64,000 bases of DNA from Acidobacteriota bacterium (GTDB taxonomy: Bacteria > Acidobacteriota > CAIWXX01), in contig JBFMAF010000003.1 of assembly GCA_040755995.1 (NCBI GenBank), forward strand, positions 1-64,000. Direction: 5' to 3'. This document shows, in pieces, positions 54,056 to 64,000 of this stretch. Position 1 is the first letter of the stretch; every line of letters begins with the position of its first letter. The position numbers and the translations under genes were made by a program. A model generated the notes under the pieces. It was not told where the DNA came from, searched no databases, and worked only from the letters and a program-made list of their open reading frames with translations.

Positions 54056-54571
54056 TCAGAAACTCAGACCCGCCTCTCTGGCGCCGTCCGCAAAGGCCCT
54101 CACCCTGCCATGGTACAGGAAACCGCCGCGGTCGAAGACCGCCCGTGTGATACCCTTGGCCTTCATCTGTTCTGCCATGTACTTGCCCAGCTGCCGTGCG
54201 ACCAACACCGCTCGCCCGTTGTGGACCTTGGGCACGCTGTCGTCGACCTTTTCCACCGGCTTCTCGGGCTTGCCCTTTTTCTTCTTGGTTTCAGCGCCGG
54301 CATCCGGCGCCTTCTTCTTCTCCTCGACCTTGGCTTCCACCTTCTCCGGCATCGGAACCGGCTCGATCTTCAGCTGGTCGGCGAATTCCTTCTGTAGAGT
54401 CGACGCTGCGGCCAGCGTCTGCCCATGCAGATCATCGATCGCCTGCGCGTAGAAGTGCTTGCTGCTCCGATACACCGCCAGCCTCGGCCGCTCCGGCGTC
54501 CCCAGAACCTTCTTCCGGATCCGCAGGTGTACGCGGCCTCGCCGGTAACGCCTCAGGATGCTCCTATCCAT
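54056..54571 (-). CDS. rplR: 50S ribosomal protein L18 with ~50-aa insertion
   Basis: [35 protein letters not shown]. Confidence 0.95.
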
Positions 54572-54635: not shown

Positions 54636-54663
54636 ATTATACGCAAAACCGGCGCAAGTTCAA
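54636..54663 (-). promoter_or_regulatory. sigma70 promoter of rplR
   Basis: TTGAAC-16-TATAAT with upstream A-tracts. Confidence 0.7.
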
Positions 54664-54927: not shown

Positions 54928-56448
54928 CTACTTGCACTTGAGCAGGGGTCTGGTGATCGTCGATGTGGCGCCGTTGCCCGCTTCGTCGGTCGCCGTGAGT
55001 GTCACCTCGACCGACCACTCATGTCCGTTCGGGTAGACGTAGATGTCGTTGCGGATGATGTCGTAGACGCCGTTGCCGTGCACCGGGTTGCCGCCGTTGT
55101 TGAACACCTGCACGTTGTCGATAGACACAGTGCTGGACTGGGTGCAGTTGTCGCTCGCCCCCGCGGTAAGCTTGTTCGCGGTCTTTTTGCCTTTGCCCAC
55201 GGTGACGCAGATCGGATCGGTAAGCGTCGGTGCCGGGACCGTGTTGTCGACCACCCTCACGGTGGCATGGCAGCTGTCGGACTCGCCGTGCTCCTCGGTC
55301 ACGGTCAGTGTCACAGGGTGCTCGCCGAGCGGGAACGGCCCTGTGTCGTCGAGTGACAGCGTGATGTCGTCGCCGTCGGGATCGTAGGAGCCGCCGTCGA
55401 TGTCGCCCGCGGCGATCGTCGCTTCGCAGTTCTCGTCTGCTGAGACCTGCGCGTCCTTGCAGACGGCCACCGGTGGGTTGTTGGGCGGGATCGATAGGGA
55501 CTGCCAGTCAGGCATGGTATCTTCCGCGGAGTTCTTCGTCAGGTTTTCCTGGTCGCTTCCGTCGTGCGCATCCATCTCGTAAATCTCCCCGTTGCCATCC
55601 CGATTGCTGTAAAAGGCGATCTTCGATCCATCCGGGGACCAGGTGGGGAAGCAGTCAATCGCCAGGTTGGCGGTGAGGCGGATGACGTTGCTCCCGTCGG
55701 CCTTGGCTCTGTAGATATCGGGCTTGAACAGCCCTGCATCCCGGTCGCTGGGGAATGCGATCAGGGCGCCGTCGGGCGAATAGGCCGGATCGTCATCGTG
55801 TCCCGGCCCCGTGATGAGGGGAGCCTGCCCGGTGCCGTCACTGGAGTTCATGACATAGATGTCGATCCTTCCTGCAGCCGCGCCCACATCCCTTGGAAAC
55901 GCGATCAGGAGCCCATCGGGAGACCATTCGGGACAGCCTTCTCCGGCTGTGCTGTTGGTCAGATTCCTCGGATGGCTGCCGTCGGAGTCCATCACATAGA
56001 CTTCGCCGTTGCCATCTCGGTACGACAGGAAGGCGATCATGCTACCGTCGGGCGACCAACAGGGGCAGAGGTCCTCCGACACGTGGTTGGTCAAACGGGA
56101 ATGGTCGCTGCCATCGGCGTCCATCAGGTAGATCTCGGCGTTGCCGTCCCGAGTGGAGACGAACGCGATCTTGGAGCAGTCAGGCGACCACGCGGGATAG
56201 CGATCGTAGGCGGAGTTGTAGGTAAGCCGCATCACGCCGCTGCCGTCGGCTTCCATCGCGTAGATCTCGTAGTTGCCGTCGCGATTGGAGGCAAAAGCGA
56301 TCTTACCGCTGCATTCCTGACAAGCAGCTCGGTCGGCGGTGGCGGACATGGCCAACAAGAGCAACACGGCTAGCGCGGAGCGAACCACTGTGGACACGGA
56401 GCCAGCGCGGCGGGCAGGCGGGCTCGACGATTCACCCTTGGCGTTCAT
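54928..56448 (-). CDS. Secreted TolB-like (PD40) beta-propeller with C-terminal Ig-like domains
   Basis: Signal peptide; about six repeats of P.WSPDG.KIAF.S.RDGN.EIY.M; NNPPVA...GSYDPDGD; AGGAGG RBS. Confidence 0.88.
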   Translation of the reverse strand: MNAKGESSSPPARRAGSVSTVVRSALAVLLLLAMSATADRAACQECSGKIAFASNRDGNYEIYAMEADGSGVMRLTYNSAYDRYPAWSPDCSKIAFVSTRDGNAEIYLMDADGSDHSRLTNHVSEDLCPCWSPDGSMIAFLSYRDGNGEVYVMDSDGSHPRNLTNSTAGEGCPEWSPDGLLIAFPRDVGAAAGRIDIYVMNSSDGTGQAPLITGPGHDDDPAYSPDGALIAFPSDRDAGLFKPDIYRAKADGSNVIRLTANLAIDCFPTWSPDGSKIAFYSNRDGNGEIYEMDAHDGSDQENLTKNSAEDTMPDWQSLSIPPNNPPVAVCKDAQVSADENCEATIAAGDIDGGSYDPDGDDITLSLDDTGPFPLGEHPVTLTVTEEHGESDSCHATVRVVDNTVPAPTLTDPICVTVGKGKKTANKLTAGASDNCTQSSTVSIDNVQVFNNGGNPVHGNGVYDIIRNDIYVYPNGHEWSVEVTLTATDEAGNGATSTITRPLLKCK

Positions 56449-56663: not shown

Positions 56664-56685
56664 CCTGAGCTTCCCCCCTCACTCG

Positions 56686-56716
56686 TATAAGTGTCATGAC
56701 CGGACCGCCGTCTTGG
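56686..56716 (-). promoter_or_regulatory. CCAAGA-N15-GACACT motif, copy 1
   Basis: CCAAGA cggcggtccggtcat GACACTTATA. Confidence 0.75.
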
Positions 56717-56905
56717 GTTTTAGCGAAGAGGAGTGTGACTTGAAAGTAGCAGTCAAGCGCTGTGGAGAAGACGCTGACGGACCGCGCCACACCAGGCACG
56801 GGAGTGCGTGGCCTCAGTAGCTACGTGCGGCGCTAGCGCTGCGAAGACCCGGTCGTTCGGCGGCGGCGACGGATGGTCGCCGTTATTGGACTTCGCGGAG
56901 AAGCA

Positions 56906-57169
56906 TCAATAGCCAACTCGCCGAGGGTCCCAGCCGAAGGCGCGCACCATCAGTTCGGGCTCGACCGATCGCGACGCGAGGCGGAGTGCCAGCTCACGCG
57001 AGTCGGCGTCCGGGTGCCGGCGGCGGATGTCCATAAGAGCGAGCTCCTGGACAGCGCGTGTAAGGGCCCGGACGCGATCGAGCTTCTGCGCAGGCGACAT
57101 CCGGCGGAGGCCCGCCACGAGCATGGCCTCGATCTGGGGGTGGGTATCGTTCGGTGTTCCAGCGGTCAC
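56906..57169 (-). CDS. Small hypothetical protein (antitoxin-like)
   Basis: DTHPQIEA...LRRMSPAQKL...IRRRHPDA...ELALRLA pattern. Confidence 0.6.
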   Translation of the reverse strand: MTAGTPNDTHPQIEAMLVAGLRRMSPAQKLDRVRALTRAVQELALMDIRRRHPDADSRELALRLASRSVEPELMVRAFGWDPRRVGY

Positions 57170-57336
57170 ACGTCTAGTCCACCAGCACAGCCCGCTCTCA
57201 AGTTCCTGCCACACGTACCCGTCGCACAATCCGATCAGGGCCCGGCAATGTCCGCCGGCTCTCCGGTGGGGCCGGCGGCGTGTGAGAGGCGGTACGGCGA
57301 GTAGAGAGGAGATGCCGGAGATACTGGGCAGAGGTT

Positions 57337-58992
57337 TCATTGTGATTGGAGCAGTGCCGAGACATCGCGGACGGTGTCGAGGTAGTGAGTTGTCAGTTCC
57401 CTGAGCCTGTCCACTGTCATCGGCGGCACCATTCCGTCCGGGACGATGGGTAGGAGCGCGTTCACGACCCTGTTGACGTCTTCGGCCTTGACTCCGCGGC
57501 GCAGCCGATCGAGAAGATCCGTCATCGTGTTCCCATTCATCGCTTCCATGAGCGCTTTCTGAAATTGGACGCTGATTCCGCGGAGGTGTTTCTGCTCATC
57601 GTCGGTGAGTCCTGCAAGATCGACAAACGGAATCCGGAGCAGCTCGTTGAGGAGAACCGAAGGATCCTTCGCGTACTCCAGGACCGAGAGGAGGTCCGGT
57701 GTTTCGAGGCCGTGAGCCAGGAGCGACTGGAGCTTGACGATCGCCTGACGTTCGGTCACCTCGGGTACGTCGAGGTAGTAGTAGTCCCTGCCTGAAAGAC
57801 CCAGCCGATGGAGAAGGATCTCCGCGCCTTGGGTGTCACCTGGGTCCACCCCTTCCAGTTGCACGGACGGGACTCTGAAAATCTTCTGTAGGTCATCTTG
57901 CAGAGTGCGGGCGAATGCCTCGAAGGTATCCTCCTGCGTAGCTCCAGCGGGCGCAACCTGCTCTCGAGGGACCAGGCCGATTCTAGCGTTCTGCGTGTAC
58001 TGGCGGTAACTGTAAGTAGTGCTCACGCCCTCAGACTGAAGCCGAGCCCAATTCAGAGGTTCGCTGAGGGCGTTCAGTCGTTGAGCCACACTCCCCCTCT
58101 CCGGGTTGCTGAAGGTCAACAGATACGCCTCGTGGTGCCGAGAGGCCAGGTAGCGCTCGATGACGGCGGAGGGCAGCGAGGCGAAGAGGTCCTGCAGCGC
58201 CGTCCTCAACCACGGCCTGTTGTCCAGCAGCTCCTTCAGCGAAATCGCGAAGCGGCGCGGACTCCGAGGATTGTAGGTTTGCCGCAGCACCAGCGGAAGG
58301 GAGGTAGGCCACTCGCCAGCTTCCAGTTTCTCCCGGATCGCTTGCAGCTCCTTCTCGAAGCCTGGTCCCAACTCGCGCCGACGCTTCTCGACGCGTGCCT
58401 TTGCATTTCGGAGCAGATAGTCAAGCGAAACGAATCCGTCAGTCCCGAGGGTTCCGCGCACGGCCAGGTCCTCGCGAAACTCGAGATACGCGTGGACGAC
58501 AGGCAGCGTTTGGTGATCGGCTGCGGCCTCCTGGCATGCCCTGGCCCGCAACGCCGGCGCGTCTCGCAGGAACGTGGCAATCGACACGAGCGCATAGCTG
58601 CGAGGCTCGGCAACGATTGGGGAGTATCTTGATACCTCCTCGATAGCCAGCCCTTTCAGCAGATCGTACCGCGGGTCGCCTGACAACGAGAGCCAGCGCC
58701 GCGCGCCTTTCAAGAGGAGCATGACCGGCGACCTGCGCTGAGGGTGAAGGCCGTTGCGTTCCAGGAAAGCCAGATACTGCATCGCGAGGCGGTGCGGTGT
58801 CGTCTCACGGCGCCAGTAGGATAGTCCCAAGAGCAGGTAGCCGAAGAGGATCAGCACGGGCTCCTGTTGGAACGGGAGGGCTATGTCAAGGATCCAGGTG
58901 AAGAGAAGCACGCAGCAGGCAACGGTGATAACGACGAACAATGTGGTGAGGATCCTCCGCCTCAGGTTCTCAGCCTTGATTGTCTTTGTCAT
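57337..58992 (-). CDS. Hypothetical protein, 2 N-terminal TM + ~480-aa soluble region
   Basis: GGAGG RBS, 551 aa, 26-nt gap after DUF6765 gene. Confidence 0.75.
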   Translation of the reverse strand: MTKTIKAENLRRRILTTLFVVITVACCVLLFTWILDIALPFQQEPVLILFGYLLLGLSYWRRETTPHRLAMQYLAFLERNGLHPQRRSPVMLLLKGARRWLSLSGDPRYDLLKGLAIEEVSRYSPIVAEPRSYALVSIATFLRDAPALRARACQEAAADHQTLPVVHAYLEFREDLAVRGTLGTDGFVSLDYLLRNAKARVEKRRRELGPGFEKELQAIREKLEAGEWPTSLPLVLRQTYNPRSPRRFAISLKELLDNRPWLRTALQDLFASLPSAVIERYLASRHHEAYLLTFSNPERGSVAQRLNALSEPLNWARLQSEGVSTTYSYRQYTQNARIGLVPREQVAPAGATQEDTFEAFARTLQDDLQKIFRVPSVQLEGVDPGDTQGAEILLHRLGLSGRDYYYLDVPEVTERQAIVKLQSLLAHGLETPDLLSVLEYAKDPSVLLNELLRIPFVDLAGLTDDEQKHLRGISVQFQKALMEAMNGNTMTDLLDRLRRGVKAEDVNRVVNALLPIVPDGMVPPMTVDRLRELTTHYLDTVRDVSALLQSQ

Positions 58993-59018
58993 GACCGAAC
59001 CTCCATTCTCATCTGCCG

Positions 59019-60188
59019 CTAAATCAGGACAATCCCGTTTGAGGGCAGGTACTCTCTGAGGACAAACTCTCTGTACCAGCTCGCGGCCTGGTAGAACCTG
59101 TAGATGGGATGCTGGACGGCGTCCCATGGCTTCGGAAGCGAGCAGAGCTGATCGCGGCTGTCTGACCACGCCTTCAGGTTGTACGGGGGTATCGTCTGCT
59201 CTTGGAAGGTACCCGACTGCTGCGCAGAAAAGGCCGTCTGCCACGCGCGTGAGCGCGTTTCGATGTCGCCTGTCGTGCCTAGAATCTGCGCAACTTGCGC
59301 CGCCTTGAACAGGTGGGAGACTTGCGAGTCTGCAATCCGAGGCGCCGCGTTCGCGAGTTGTACGAACCATACGTAGAGGGCCTCGCATGCCTCCAGGTAG
59401 TCGACAGGGTTGCTGCGTGCCTGTGTCTGGGCACGGGTCCTGTCGGAGTCGTGTGCCTCGTACTGGAAACTCCATTGGAGAAAAGGCACGTCGGGGAGAG
59501 TGGCCACGGCGCTATGGCCCAGGGCGCCCGAAATGTCCTCTGCGAAGAAGGACGCGATCGGGAGAAGCCGGCGCTTCGCCCAGTGCCTGACGCGGTCCCA
59601 GAAACCCTCGGGCGACCTGTTCTCTGTTCTCAGTCTGGGGTAGGCGGGGGCGCGGCGCCTGATGCTCCGTTCCAGTTCGCTCATCACGGCGGCTGGCGCC
59701 TGGCCGGAGGGAGGCCGGCCAAGCGTGATTGACCCGCCCTTCACACGGTTCAGGCTCGTACTGATCCCGGCGAATCCGTGATGGGCGAACGTATCAGCGT
59801 ACATGTGGGCAGCCACCCCCGCGAGCTGGAGAAAGCAGGGCCTCTCGATCTCCTTCAGGCAGGCGGCCAGGACTCCCTGGGCGTTCTTGCTGTTCTTCGT
59901 GCAAACCAGCATGTCACTCAGGTGCGGGCCTTCTCCGCCCGGCATGAAGTGGAAGGGAACCCAGACCTGGAGCTGATCATCCGGATCCGTGTTCGCGTCG
60001 AGATCGAGCAGACTGTGGGCCGTCGTCTCGACTTTGAACCGAGCGCAGTCGTTGCGTATCAGGACGCCTTCCGCCGTCGAGTCGTCCACATACTGCGATA
60101 CCCCGGCGATTGTCTCGGCGGCATCCTGCCTCAGCCCGGCCATCCGAGCCAGACAATAGACGCCATAGTAGTGCATGTCGATCTGCAT
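59019..60188 (-). CDS. DUF6765-like putative metallo-phosphoesterase
   Basis: MQIDMHYYG, SQYVDD, PFHFMPG, HMYADTFAHHGFAG, GHSA...PD. Confidence 0.75.
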   Translation of the reverse strand: MQIDMHYYGVYCLARMAGLRQDAAETIAGVSQYVDDSTAEGVLIRNDCARFKVETTAHSLLDLDANTDPDDQLQVWVPFHFMPGGEGPHLSDMLVCTKNSKNAQGVLAACLKEIERPCFLQLAGVAAHMYADTFAHHGFAGISTSLNRVKGGSITLGRPPSGQAPAAVMSELERSIRRRAPAYPRLRTENRSPEGFWDRVRHWAKRRLLPIASFFAEDISGALGHSAVATLPDVPFLQWSFQYEAHDSDRTRAQTQARSNPVDYLEACEALYVWFVQLANAAPRIADSQVSHLFKAAQVAQILGTTGDIETRSRAWQTAFSAQQSGTFQEQTIPPYNLKAWSDSRDQLCSLPKPWDAVQHPIYRFYQAASWYREFVLREYLPSNGIVLI

Positions 60189-60239
60189 GATTCACCTCGC
60201 TAGCCAGGATGGGAGCATTACACCATCCCCTGCTACATC

Positions 60240-60270
60240 TATAAGTGTCTTAAGCAGGACAGAATCTTGG
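60240..60270 (-). promoter_or_regulatory. CCAAGA-N15-GACACT motif, copy 2
   Basis: CCAAGA ttctgtcctgcttaa GACACTTATA. Confidence 0.75.
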
Positions 60271-60359
60271 CCACCGCCGGGAGGAAGACCCTGGGCTTGA
60301 TGGCCTCCCGGTTGCGGCTGGTGCCGCGCAAGCGCCTGTCCCGCTTCGAGGCGGCCCCG

Positions 60360-62522
60360 TCAGAGTTGCCCCTCGAAGTAGTCGCGGAACACGGCATCCC
60401 AACTCAATGCGTCGTCCAGAGGCAGTGCGCCTTCAATGCGAGCCAGGCGGTCGACTAGCAGCGCATTCCTGACGGATTTGGCGCACTGCCTTGCGACGGC
60501 ATCTTCGATCCGTGCCCGCGCGGCCGAGTCGACGCGTCCGTGCAAACCACCGTGGGCGATGTAGTCCGCCAGCACGAGGTTATTCAATCCCGCCCCGCCG
60601 GTGCGTTGGAGAAGCTCAGCGCATCCGAAGGCATCCGAGAGCACGCACACTTTCCCGGAGAAGAACGGCTCCAGTGGAGCGAGCCCGAAGGGCTCATACA
60701 CCGACAGGCCCAGCTCGACGTCCGAGCCAATCCGCATCTCCTCGAACTTGGCGCCGAAGAGATCATCGGCGGGCGCGTCTGGTCCGAACCCGAGCGCCCG
60801 CCCGCTCCAGCCAAACTGGTTTATGAAGACGATCAATGCCTCAGGGCCCGAGGGTTGCCAGAAATGGAGGAGATTGAAGCGTTCAATCCGTCCGTAGTGT
60901 GGACAGTCTCTGTCCAGCAAATCTCCCCCGGGTGCCCGTGAACTATGTGCAAACGGCCACCCGAAAGCACTACGCCACCGTTGCGTGTCAGCCGGGGAAG
61001 GCACATCGGGGTACGGACTCGCCAGCCAAAGCATGACGACCCGGCGACCGGGGTGTGCCCTTACGTATTCGTGCAAGAGACCGGCTAGTCTCCAGGGGCC
61101 CTTGCTGGTTTCGGTACGCGACACAGACGTCCAGATCTCGATCTGTCCCTCCTCCAGTCCGCCTGCGAAGCTCTGAAACTTCTCGACATCGGGTTCGGAT
61201 GCCTTGGTGCGCCGGTCGGCTTCCTGCGAGAACCATTTCGCAAGTGCCACGCGCAGCTTCCGTGTCGCATCGTCCACGACCGACTTGATGCTTTGTGCGG
61301 CATCCTGGGGGCTCTTCTTGGAGATCCTGGGAAGGTGATTGCGGAGAGCCGGTAGGGTCGGGATGCCGTTGGGTGCCATTGTCAGTCGAGAACCCAGGTT
61401 CGGCAGCATCCACGCGGTTTCATCCCGCACCCACTTCCCGACGGCGAACACGCGGCCGAATCGGTCCGCCTCGCGATTGATAGAGTGGAAGGGGATTTCC
61501 TGGAACGGTCGCCCAGGCACGGCAGCGACGTTCGCGAAGGCGACGTCGAGCGAAACGCCGTCCCTCGATGCGTCCTGCATGAACGGGTAGAAACCGACAT
61601 CGTGACCGCGAAGGTCGTATCCTGCGGAGAGAAGCGCCGCGCGTTTGTCAAGGAGGGCGCCCTCAACGAGGAGTCGGGCGATCCGGCACTCATGCGCCAT
61701 GTAGACGCTCCGGCATCCGATGTCCGGGGCCGCCATGCGCATCGCCCACCACAAAGGCACTCCGAGCCAGTCGTGCACGATGAAGACATCGGGGACGCCC
61801 GCGCAACGCGGTGGCTCCGTGAGGCCCAGTGTGACGGTCCTCGTAGCCGCCCAAAGGAGAGGAGCCGCGTGGACATAGAACTCGGTCTCCACGAGGAAGG
61901 GATTGCATTTGTACGGGCGGACCACGTCTTCGGGGTAGTACGCTCTGCCTCGATGGAACTCGACCCCTCCTGAAAGAGGCTTTCCAGACGCGAAGACGCG
62001 CTCGTCGTCGCAGAGGACCGGGCCGGACTCCGGGTGGATGGCTGGAAAGCGCCGCTCGTACCAGCGGAGGTTGAAGTACCCGGAGCGGGCCAGATCGATC
62101 GTGAATCGCCGTATGCGGTCTTCGCGAAGGCCGTGGGGGGATGCCACGACAATGCCGATCCAGCGTTCCTCGCCCAGCTCCGTGACGAAATGGCGTTCGC
62201 CGTATGCGATCCGCCCACCCCACTCCGCGACGAGGGCGTCAAGTTTCGAAAACGTATCCGCGGGCTTACAAAGGAGTTCTGATTGCGCCGGTGGGCCGGT
62301 TCGCCATTGCTGGGAGTCGTACAGAAGGGATCCGCTGGTCCCCCATCTGCTCAAGCGTCCGGCGGGCTCCCTGAATTCGTACGCCCCTGCGAGGATCGTG
62401 GTGCCGGCATGCTTGTGGTAGCGGTCAAGGAGCAGCAGCCCCTCGTAGAGGACCGCGCCGATCCCCGCGATCTTTCCCGCCGCTTCGTGAGTGGAGTGAA
62501 CGGTCACCTTTCCGTGCGTCAA
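60360..62522 (-). CDS. Glycogen-synthase-like GT-B glycosyltransferase (GT3-like)
   Basis: THEAAGKIAGIG (cf. E..K.GGI), HDW, NGI, SR...KG, SVYEPFGLAPLE; TTG start after AAGGAGG. Confidence 0.75.
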   Translation of the reverse strand: MTHGKVTVHSTHEAAGKIAGIGAVLYEGLLLLDRYHKHAGTTILAGAYEFREPAGRLSRWGTSGSLLYDSQQWRTGPPAQSELLCKPADTFSKLDALVAEWGGRIAYGERHFVTELGEERWIGIVVASPHGLREDRIRRFTIDLARSGYFNLRWYERRFPAIHPESGPVLCDDERVFASGKPLSGGVEFHRGRAYYPEDVVRPYKCNPFLVETEFYVHAAPLLWAATRTVTLGLTEPPRCAGVPDVFIVHDWLGVPLWWAMRMAAPDIGCRSVYMAHECRIARLLVEGALLDKRAALLSAGYDLRGHDVGFYPFMQDASRDGVSLDVAFANVAAVPGRPFQEIPFHSINREADRFGRVFAVGKWVRDETAWMLPNLGSRLTMAPNGIPTLPALRNHLPRISKKSPQDAAQSIKSVVDDATRKLRVALAKWFSQEADRRTKASEPDVEKFQSFAGGLEEGQIEIWTSVSRTETSKGPWRLAGLLHEYVRAHPGRRVVMLWLASPYPDVPSPADTQRWRSAFGWPFAHSSRAPGGDLLDRDCPHYGRIERFNLLHFWQPSGPEALIVFINQFGWSGRALGFGPDAPADDLFGAKFEEMRIGSDVELGLSVYEPFGLAPLEPFFSGKVCVLSDAFGCAELLQRTGGAGLNNLVLADYIAHGGLHGRVDSAARARIEDAVARQCAKSVRNALLVDRLARIEGALPLDDALSWDAVFRDYFEGQL

Positions 62523-62655
62523 GTCTGGCCTCCTTACATCGTCTTGGTCTCACAGACCGAGGGTAGATCGCGCCTCACCGTTCCGTCCCGGCGCCGACGA
62601 TCGCCCGCTGAGGAACCCGCGAGGCTCGAACCGAGGCAGCGACCACCCTCACACA

Positions 62656-62686
62656 GAGAAGTGTCACGACCCCATCGGCATCTTGG
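62656..62686 (-). promoter_or_regulatory. CCAAGA-N15-GACACT motif, copy 3
   Basis: CCAAGA tgccgatggggtcgt GACACTTCTC. Confidence 0.75.
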
Positions 62687-62862
62687 CCTCCGACCCCGGG
62701 TCTTCGGCAACGAGCCCTCCACCCGAGTTCCGGTTGCAGCTGCATTCGAGACCGTTTCCGTGAAGCGTGGATCGCCTCCTCCCCGACTGAGTAGCCACAG
62801 CGCTTTTCATCCTCCACGACCACCACGTGCCCGCTGATCGTGGTGTGTCGCGCCCGGCGTCA

Positions 62863-63207
62863 TCATCTGCTCGCCGGTGACGGCGCCAGAAGACCCGCCA
62901 AGGCGCCGATGGCAGCGGCACCTAATGCAGTCAGGGCATCAGGAATGTTCGGCGCACTGCCGGCGGAGGCAATGGCACTGAGGTAGATGGCCCCACCTAT
63001 CGCCGCGATGCAGACGATGCCAAGGGCGAGCACGACGATGCGGTAAGTCCAGCGATCTGAGACGAATGCAGGGGGCGGCCACTCGCGTGTGACTTGTTCG
63101 GCAAGGTCGCGAAGGACCGCTGGATTCGACTTGACCTGGTCGAGGAGGCCAGGCGTGTCGAGTAGACGGTCGACGAGAATCTTCGCGGAACGTGGCGGTT
63201 CGCTCAT
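62863..63207 (-). CDS. Small hypothetical protein with two C-terminal TM helices
   Basis: GGAGGA RBS, DRWTYRIVVLALG...ALGAAAIGALAGLLAPSP. Confidence 0.7.
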   Translation of the reverse strand: MSEPPRSAKILVDRLLDTPGLLDQVKSNPAVLRDLAEQVTREWPPPAFVSDRWTYRIVVLALGIVCIAAIGGAIYLSAIASAGSAPNIPDALTALGAAAIGALAGLLAPSPASR

Positions 63208-63265
63208 AGTATCCTCCAATCCCTTCAGGGCTACCGAAGAACACGCAGCCAACAACCTGGTTGGC

Positions 63266-63289
63266 GAGCCACGGGGGTTGACCCGTGGC
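63266..63289. repeat. REP-like hairpin
   Basis: GAGCCACGGGGGTTGACCCGTGGC; related copy near 63836. Confidence 0.45.
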
Positions 63290-63533
63290 GGCCAACGGCT
63301 CGCGTCGGCCATCGCGTTGAGGCCCGGGCCAGGCTGCAGACCAGGTCTCATGACGGGCGTTACTTCTTTCCTCACAAGGTTCCGGGTTGAGGAGAACTAA
63401 CCTCGACTCGCGTCAAGCGCGGTGAATGATCGATCCGCCTCAGCCCCGCATTGTTCACGAGCGAGACGGGTGTTTGCCTGCTCACGACCCGGCAAACGTC
63501 ATGCCAGCGCGCCATACACTTCTCTCCTTATCA

Positions 63534-63564
63534 TAGTAGTGTCGCGAGCGCATGCGTATCTTGG
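63534..63564 (-). promoter_or_regulatory. CCAAGA-N15-GACACT motif, copy 4
   Basis: CCAAGA tacgcatgcgctcgc GACACTACTA, followed by AAGGAG and ATG 63515. Confidence 0.7.
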
Positions 63565-63892
63565 TAGACGTGTAAGAGATGCGACTGGGCCTCCCGCGAG
63601 CGTTGCGCCAGGGGCTCCTGCCAGCGGTCGCGGGGTTCTGATGCAGGCATCGCCTTCCCGTGCAGCGGGCTGACTCCCCTCGCCCGGTGCTTCAATCCTT
63701 GCAAGCAGGTCCTCGTTCACGATGTCGTCGTGGCTTGAGCGTGGCTCGTCGATGAGAATTTCACGGGCACCGCAATTCGTAAGTAACAGAAAAACAAAGC
63801 ACCGGAACCACATCCAGCACGTGCTCCCCGTGACTGAGCCCGGGGTTGACCGGGTCGGCAGTCGGAGTACCAGAAGAATGCGGCGCCGCGGT

Positions 63893-63924
63893 CCAAGATT
63901 TCTGCCGCTGTCGAGACACTTATC
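63893..63924 (+). promoter_or_regulatory. CCAAGA-N16-GACACT motif, copy 5
   Basis: CCAAGA tttctgccgctgtcga GACACTTATC, followed by AGGAGG and GTG 63943 (ORF runs off window). Confidence 0.7.
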
Positions 63925-64000
63925 ACTCTAGGAGGGAGTTCGGTGACCAGTCTTGAACCTTGCGATAGGAAGGGAGCACGACGACGATGCGGGCGAAATC

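Follow-up and report, generated by a model that had tools for sequence, protein, structure and literature searches.

Near one end of a 64,000-nucleotide stretch of DNA from an Acidobacteriota bacterium lies an island of accessory genes that share an upstream sequence: two short boxes, CCAAGA and GACACT, set 15 or 16 nt apart. The stretch, here called the window, is positions 1-64000 of one contig (JBFMAF010000003.1, hereafter C3) of a 7.7-Mb genome in 56 contigs (G000). The motif has five exact matches in the window, all within 56690-63920; shuffled windows contain 0.01 matches on average and 0 of 100 shuffles reach five. An initial annotation had picked out the same five copies, at the right positions but in intervals that extend 4 nt beyond the motif, and its remark that the first 56 kb lacks a full match is true of all the rest of the window. 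Here we argue that this motif is fairly likely to be the -35/-10 promoter of a lineage-specific extracytoplasmic function (ECF) sigma factor, encoded by two paralogous genes that we call s1 and s2.

What do the copies precede? Each faces a downstream gene, as had been claimed, but the real genes begin 55-330 nt away (Table 1) and two of the supposed target open reading frames (ORFs) score as non-coding. A Cys-rich ORF of 72 codons (dicodon log-likelihood ratio -34) and an ORF of 47 codons (-12.5) have no homolog in G000 and are probably not genes. For the label 'GT3-like' given to the gene behind copy 3, the only match is one to Glycos_transf_1 below cutoff. The ORF leaving the window does mark the start of a gene, but of a frameshifted, truncated DUF6119 gene. 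Copy 5, which precedes it, is the only one of the 32 sites listed below with a 16-nt spacer; the C4 paralog has a 15-nt spacer and an intact gene. At C4:112113-112376 the paralog of the 87-aa gene precedes a nucleotidyltransferase-like gene (labelled by eye) that is missing from the window. The housekeeping consensus, seen in the rplR promoter at the island's edge, differs from the island motif.

Table 1. Motif copies, genes and associated features. Positions are those of the window unless a contig is named.
Feature	Position	Strand	Remarks
Motif copy 1 (CCAAGA-N15-GACACT)	56690..56716	-	purine run 56676-56680; TolB-like gene 241 nt downstream
Motif copy 2	60244..60270	-	purine run 60230-60234; DUF6765 gene 55 nt downstream
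Motif copy 3	62660..62686	-	purine run 62646-62650; 720-aa glycosyltransferase-like gene 137 nt downstream
Motif copy 4	63538..63564	-	purine run 63524-63528; 114-aa membrane protein gene ~330 nt downstream; divergent from copy 5
Motif copy 5	63893..63920	+	spacer 16; purine run 63930-63934; broken DUF6119 gene 66 nt downstream
Sigma-70-type promoter TTGAAC-16-TATAAT before rplR	54636..54663	-	canonical; marks island's downstream edge
TolB-like beta-propeller (PD40) protein gene	54928..56448	-	predicted signal-like N-terminus; island's last gene; 64% identical to motif-preceded C4 paralog
87-aa protein gene	56906..57169	-	82% identical to C4:112113-112376
551-aa protein gene	57337..58992	-	no known family; co-oriented after DUF6765
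DUF6765 gene	59019..60188	-	E 6e-77; target of copy 2
720-aa glycosyltransferase-like gene	60360..62522	-	sub-cutoff PF00534 (Glycos_transf_1) match, E 0.0012; target of copy 3
114-aa hydrophobic protein gene	62863..63207	-	no known family; weak coding score; probable target of copy 4
DUF6119/TIGR04141 gene start	63987..64000	+	frameshifted, truncated beyond window
s1, candidate ECF sigma	G000:C3:106888-107487		43 kb past window end, upstream end of C3 block
s2, candidate ECF sigma	G000:C56:36108-36704		upstream end of C56 block
Sister family GCAAGAT-N9-TCRCC-AAATC	G000:C24:234004, 237605, 246200, 323707; C4:86669; C32:369433; C33:68073; C3:107554; C56:36771
Second sister family GCGAG..TCGCGAAAC	G000:C36:193607, 193653, 197747; C24:244258; C33:60695; C20:322; C51:73831
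Further spc-split coordinates	G000:C34:5050-5592; loci L044, L045

The genome-wide scan advised in the initial annotation bears out the motif. Exact matches in G000 number 15 at spacer 15 and two at spacer 16, and the remaining spacers in the range 8-25 have 0-2 apiece; chance predicts 0.39 per spacer. Eleven of the spacer-15 matches lie outside the window. At positions +10 to +14, counted from the motif's end, seven of these have five purines out of five (background 4.6%) and nine have at least four, three of the nine being paralogous copies of one unit on C55. None of the six matches at spacers other than 15/16 has five, though three have four. Nine of the 11 also precede and face a co-oriented gene. 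The matches at C23:264589 and C54:33171, and the spacer-16 match at C30:1748, look like chance.

One-mismatch and position weight matrix (PWM) scans of G000 yielded a hand-kept list of 32 sites, from which the borderline site C36:105013 and hits without the purine run were omitted. C3 has 11 sites, C4 and C56 four each, C55 three, C11 and C24 two each, and C16, C20, C29, C31, C36 and C51 one each. Their consensus is CCAAGAT-N10-TNR-NNN-CACT, followed by an A+T-rich stretch and then the purine run, where 18 non-redundant sites have 94-100% purines per position. The expected enrichment upstream of co-oriented genes is there: 25 of the 26 top PWM hits face such a gene and the 26th lies at a contig end. 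These context figures are partly circular because 20 of the 26 hits had seeded the PWM; the exact-match test is free of this. Twelve site pairs, chosen because both members bear the motif (two paired by position only), are 93% identical in the -35 core and 98% in CACT, against 57% over nine spacer positions and 42% over the 30 nt upstream. The boxes are kept while the spacers diverge, in line with the unrelated spacers first noticed in the window.

Nineteen of the 32 sites fall in paralogous accessory blocks on C3, C4 and C56. Within the C3 block (54.9-108.8 kb), 12 of 52 predicted genes have same-order paralogs, three on the C4 end and nine on C56, so that these 19 sites lie in apparently two copies of one island. 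Gene order suggests that the C4 end is contiguous with the start of C56. No tRNA was found at the edges of the three blocks. The regulon first proposed as a 7-kb island would, with about 32 sites, be genome-wide.

Is the motif found in other genomes? In a survey of the phylum, CCAAGA-N17-CACTWA occurs 14 times in G000 and at most three times in each of 400 other genomes (the unpublished genome G025 enters these phylum tallies only), so that a second enriched genome for a test of co-occurrence is lacking. The exact matches in G016 (two), G002 and G029 (one each) have no purine run or context, and we treat them as chance. Viral contigs gave 0 matches to a strict pattern. Our literature search turned up no report of the motif or of the sigma clade described below, though it did not extend to the ECF-group logos, Table S2 (PMC7826278 supplement) or PMC7776599 Datasets S1-S2, which could hold a matching motif. 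The bipartite motif is real and lineage-specific.

Several kinds of element could look like this. One is a recombination or cassette junction, or a mobile module such as an IS110 end or an attC-like site, that imports foreign genes, their common orientation reflecting cassette stacking. The downstream genes are indeed heterogeneous and mostly co-oriented, and homology between paralogous units often begins at the motif. The three C55 copies, moreover, are 88-92% identical, in a unit joined to IS110 transposase fragments near integron-integrase fragments. To that extent the end of an insertion sequence, named in the initial annotation as one of the cases that would overturn its reading, does apply, but to three of the 32 copies only: these alone adjoin a PF02371 transposase. 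The seven IS110 matches are confined to C55 and C24:196.6 kb, with none on C3, C4 or C56, and 0 of 28 integrase matches lie on those three contigs. The attC boxes (RYYYAAC/GTTRRRY) are absent from all 18 non-redundant sites, upstream folding has a z below -2 in two of the 18, and no other shared k-mer stands out. The motif is non-palindromic, and two copies face apart in both C3 and C4. We judge a mobile junction very unlikely. The C55 region itself (G000:C55:221000-241000) resembles the cassette region of an integron; in it lie six fragments of IS110 transposase as well as remnants of integron integrase. An integron integrase of full length, but with a single internal stop, lies at G000:C36:325985-326929.

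The purine run raises a second possibility, that the element acts in RNA as a site where a translational regulator or small RNA covers a Shine-Dalgarno-like sequence. Its near-invariance would fit, and at a few sites (C3:96568, C24:188833) a real gene starts 22 nt past the motif. At most sites, however, what follows the run is the start codon of a non-coding ORF, the gene proper having its own start 50-330 nt further on. No Rfam match was found at E<=1 in 54-64 kb, nor a conserved structure, and the sister promoters described below carry the same run even inside sigma coding sequence. An RNA element is accordingly given little credence, and the fixed purine run is more likely the transcript start than the ribosome-binding site of the real genes. 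An operator for a non-sigma transcription factor acting with the housekeeping sigma seems just as improbable. Strictly spaced half-sites would also suit a dimeric factor, and the DNA right after CACT is A+T-rich; but the two halves do not repeat each other in either direct or inverted orientation, none of the five window copies is overlapped by a sigma-70-type promoter (only two were found in 54.4-64 kb), and the geometry fits ECF promoters.

With high confidence, then, we take the motif to be an ECF-type promoter, as first proposed from the window. Its two short boxes stand at one fixed spacing within the 14-17 nt typical of the class (15 exact matches at spacer 15), oriented to the next gene, with diverging spacers and with no hairpin, attC boxes or Rfam match. 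On this model region 4 of the sigma would read CCAAG(A) and region 2 would melt the DNA at xCACT. Transcription would start ~7-10 nt after CACT, inside the purine run, and leaders would be tens to hundreds of nucleotides long.

Which sigma reads it? The ECF gene at 19.2 kb in the window is ruled out, as had been supposed: no site lies within 37 kb, it has no motif copy, and its Met171, Ser172 and Arg56 predict other bases. The cognate sigma was expected elsewhere, and s1 lies beyond the window at the island's head. Provided that the motif is an ECF-type promoter, we consider it likely that s1 and s2 encode its reader. Both are divergent ECF-like genes, 61% identical to each other and co-oriented with their blocks. 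No other of the 62 sigma genes comes as close to one of the 32 sites as s2 and s1 do, at 3.2 and 3.9 kb (the next is at 6.6 kb), and four and 11 sites, respectively, lie downstream of s2 and s1 on their own contigs. Membership of the ECF fold is supported by a PF04542 match, by Atlas feature hits of 0.95-0.96 and, below cutoff, by NCBIfam ECF models. An AlphaFold model of s1 (pLDDT 90) finds ECF sigmas as its best structural matches, with Foldseek E values of 0.006 and weaker and VIA Z scores <=9.7 over 81 residues (root-mean-square deviation 2.5), a modest match for a helical domain. With dN/dS of 0.20-0.24, the genes look functional from their sequences. Their neighbours are subtilase, MBL-fold and trypsin-like genes; directly behind s1 lie a subtilase and an MBL-fold hydrolase (PADLOC LmuA/Avs1a-like; G000:C3:103335-106651, L005:3335-6651).

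The distribution of the sigma is as narrow as that of the motif. At high score the clade occurs in two of 401 phylum genomes, G000 (two copies) and G001 (one close, one distant). Only three proteins reach E<1e-10 among 1.84e9 cluster representatives, a search that leaves close relatives inside 50% clusters uncounted, and no relative above ~40% identity was found beyond the three orthologs (s1, s2 and that of G001). A metagenome scan for relatives of the sigma, made with a generic motif, gave at least 36 loci among the matches listed, distant ECFs mostly 22-38% identical; a scan of the genome collection with the C-terminal alignment recovered only the G001 locus. The class is represented by three genomes, in which perfect matches to the refined motif number 15 (G000), one (G001) and 0 (G002, where no sigma ortholog was found). 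The single G001 match lies 2.6 kb from the sigma ortholog, before the same lipoprotein gene, and DNA homology between the two loci starts at the -35 box. The distant G001 member (G001:C68:20974-21441, L055) belongs to the orphan clade at 28% identity and also has Tyr at the RpoE-171 position.

That residue bears on specificity. The residue at RpoE position 171 sets the -31 base (Todor et al., bioRxiv 10.1101/2020.06.23.168245). In a substitution series the share of activity that goes to -31 G is 0.86 with Tyr, while the share going to C is 0.98 with Lys and 0.88 with Arg (PMC7776599 Dataset S3). With positions set from the G-T-V-R-S-R-I-F pattern, not by direct alignment to RpoE, Tyr is found at 171 in s1 and s2 only among 47 aligned G000 ECFs, 27 of which have Lys or Arg, and likewise in the G001 ortholog. 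Tyr here would give G at -31, as in the motif.

A related sequence precedes both s1 and s2. This sister motif, GCAAGAT-N9-TCRCC-AAATC, has 13 matches in G000 (one mismatch allowed) and 0 in the control, and one copy lies in frame inside a sigma gene, C24:245727-246281, that gave no Pfam hit at 1e-5. A second family has a copy inside another sigma gene, C36:197662-198216, at the same codons as the internal copy of the C24 sigma; on C20 and C51 its promoter lies ~165 nt downstream of a CCAAGA-motif copy. Each of these two sigma genes is followed by a zinc-finger anti-sigma-like gene (by eye; TPR hits), and no such gene adjoins s1, s2 or the G001 ortholog. Because s1 and s2 have no adjacent anti-sigma and stand behind the sister promoter, a cascade is suggested. 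Transcription from that promoter, probably read by the anti-sigma-paired C24 sigma, would control s1/s2, and the two steps would turn on secreted beta-propeller/RHS proteins, a type III-B CRISPR operon, TIR proteins, proteases and a glycyl-radical cluster. The cascade step taken by itself we regard as evenly balanced, and s1/s2 as a second tier overall as tentative. It is similarly doubtful that the whole forms a lineage-unique two-tier cascade, running from an anti-sigma-gated sigma with a self-encoded promoter through s1/s2 to ~30 promoters. Its targets (duplicated islands, RHS genes, the type III-B operon and an integron-like array) may, again tentatively, make up an inducible conflict programme, possibly one that has grown of late in a single genome as newly acquired genes were brought under the same promoter.

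A number of observations weigh against s1 and s2 as the readers, or against the programme built on them. No motif copy was found before or inside s1, s2 or any of 65 sigma/helix-turn-helix loci scanned (the best score was 10.9; listed sites score 17-31), so that the usual test of autoregulation, also put forward in the initial annotation, fails; autoregulation is usual but not universal among ECF sigmas. A quickly searched tree of 47 G000 ECFs, five from G001/G002 and 16 database hits, in which branches are long, sets s1/s2 next to the C24 and C36 sigmas with weak support (SH-aLRT 82). Upstream of the G001 ortholog no sister promoter can be recognised, and the cascade may therefore be G000-specific or wrong. 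G001 has the sigma without wider motif enrichment; its one site is orthologous to a G000 site and, having been inherited with the island, is not an independent gain (n = 3 genomes). Thirteen of the 32 sites are on contigs or regions distant from s1/s2. The specificity argument has its own difficulties: Phe, Trp, Thr, Asn and Cys at 171 also favour -31 G (PMC7776599 Dataset S3), with Phe in one and Thr in two of the 47 aligned ECFs. The two anti-sigma-paired sigmas, which have Asp171, carry -31 G in their own promoters; -31 G therefore cannot single out s1/s2. By a published rule -11 A predicts an acidic residue at position 56 (bioRxiv 10.1101/2020.06.23.168245), which is Leu in s1/s2, while two other ECFs have Asp or Glu. 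Finally, 'defence regulon' is only partly apt, since PADLOC gave 0 hits for the six window-island genes tested.

Could a different sigma read this ECF promoter, with s1 and s2 as passengers or as readers of sister promoters only? The C24 or C36 sigma might do so, as might one missing from the assembly or not recognised as a sigma. CAAGAT is common to the motif and one sister family, TCRN-G-A(C/A)ACT to the motif and the other, and no copy of the motif is found at s1/s2 themselves. The assembly is in 56 contigs, and one anti-sigma-paired sigma was missed by Pfam, so further sigmas could be missed as well. A genome-trained sigma profile run over all six frames turned up no additional paralog of the C24 and C36 sigmas. 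The motif and the sister promoters have very different -10 cores (CACT, as opposed to AAATC and AAACT), and their distances to the conserved T are 1 nt apart. On both C20 and C51 a single gene has the motif and a sister promoter in tandem upstream of it, an arrangement suggestive of separate readers. Between the C24 sigma and the closest site lie 57 kb, and G002, which has a relative of these sigmas, contains no perfect motif. Another reader is thus rather unlikely in our estimate, and s1/s2 remain the preferred candidates.

How does the s1/s2 system compare with known ones? The hrp box has N15-16 spacing and a CCACNNA tail. HrpL (ECF32) promoters resemble the motif in having xCAC as the -10 core, equally far from the -35 'AA' (PMC7826278); the ECF32 -10 is CCAC, whereas here CAC is invariant and the preceding base mostly A. 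Like the candidate, HrpL is, as far as this source goes, not autoregulated; it is switched on via its own transcription and serves an island plus scattered genes (PMC7826278). The ECF32 -35 box, however, is GGAAC and not CCAAG (PMC7826278), the s1/s2 loci have no type III secretion, two-component or sigma-54 control genes, and the searches made with s1 brought up no specific resemblance to HrpL. Another parallel is DdvS-DdvA of Myxococcus xanthus, in which an ECF drives several promoters across a defence island with a type III-B Cmr operon among its genes (PMC6061681, PMC11506125), and one motif site here precedes a Cmr operon. The DdvS promoters have the form GTAA-n16-CGT; they are autoregulated, and an adjacent membrane anti-sigma gates them (PMC6061681, PMC11506125). 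Here the motif is different, the candidate has no adjacent anti-sigma, and the targets, scattered over 11 contigs, include secreted and metabolic genes. On sequence grounds the predicted s1/s2 system belongs to neither the HrpL/ECF32 nor the DdvS type.

The closest catalogued boxes are those of ECF218 s41/s28/s33, with a TGCAAG -35 and a CGACA -10, but in the available text that group is confined to Actinobacteria and has an anti-sigma at +1 (PMC7826278). In the motif the invariant part is CACT, the preceding bases vary, and no anti-sigma is found at +1. ECF54 is nearest in gene context, described as having no anti-sigma and lying beside subtilase and CHAT genes (PMC7826278): s1 has a subtilase at +1, and s2 a trypsin-like gene at +1 with a CHAT gene downstream. 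It too is listed from Actinobacteria only, with a predicted promoter of GTATCAG / CTCC (PMC7826278).

Further targets on C3 include caspase, astacin and B12 radical-SAM genes and a lipoprotein with the glycyl-radical cluster. A glycyl-radical cluster present in duplicate (G000:C3:86320-93013 and C56:11298-20222) has genes for an uncharacterised glycyl-radical enzyme, an activase, a pair of membrane proteins and an old yellow enzyme; none of the NCBIfam equivalogs matched it at cutoff. The Cmr operon begins 415 nt after the motif site C11:111195, and the type III-B operon (Cmr1-6, Cas10; G000:C11:101249-110754) encloses two genes of no known family. Targets elsewhere in G000 are two TIR proteins, RHS proteins (C16, C24) and more propellers. 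At G000:C3:67914-72292 (L001) a C5 DNA methylase, a receiver-domain protein and a HATPase gene form one unit, with a weak type II restriction enzyme match. A divergent FliA/WhiG-like sigma lies at G000:C25:14116-18448, where nearby small genes resemble type III secretion chaperone/needle genes (by eye). The island borders ribosomal protein genes. Its insertion into the spc operon was considered and rejected, because rplR has unrelated upstream genes in all three class genomes. All three have the operon divided after rplF, before rplR, which heads its own unit. The L18 gene (window 54056-54571) encodes a Lys/Glu-rich insertion of 45-55 residues in G000 and G002 that is absent from G001, and a second, partial ribosomal protein L6 match lies outside the main cluster at G000:C29:1886-2113.

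An ECF regulon on an island is a well-known kind of system, and the surprise here is moderate. If the assignment of the motif to s1 and s2 is true, an uncatalogued ECF clade of which only three proteins are known would gain a complete sigma-promoter pair that can be tested. With boxes unlike the usual AAC/CGT, the pair would put the published ECF specificity code to a natural test, and synthetic biology would have a candidate orthogonal switch. The assignment would also show islands, CRISPR, TIR and RHS genes under one inducible sigma in an uncultured bacterium, and would extend the single studied case of an ECF-controlled defence island, that of DdvS, to a possible cascade.

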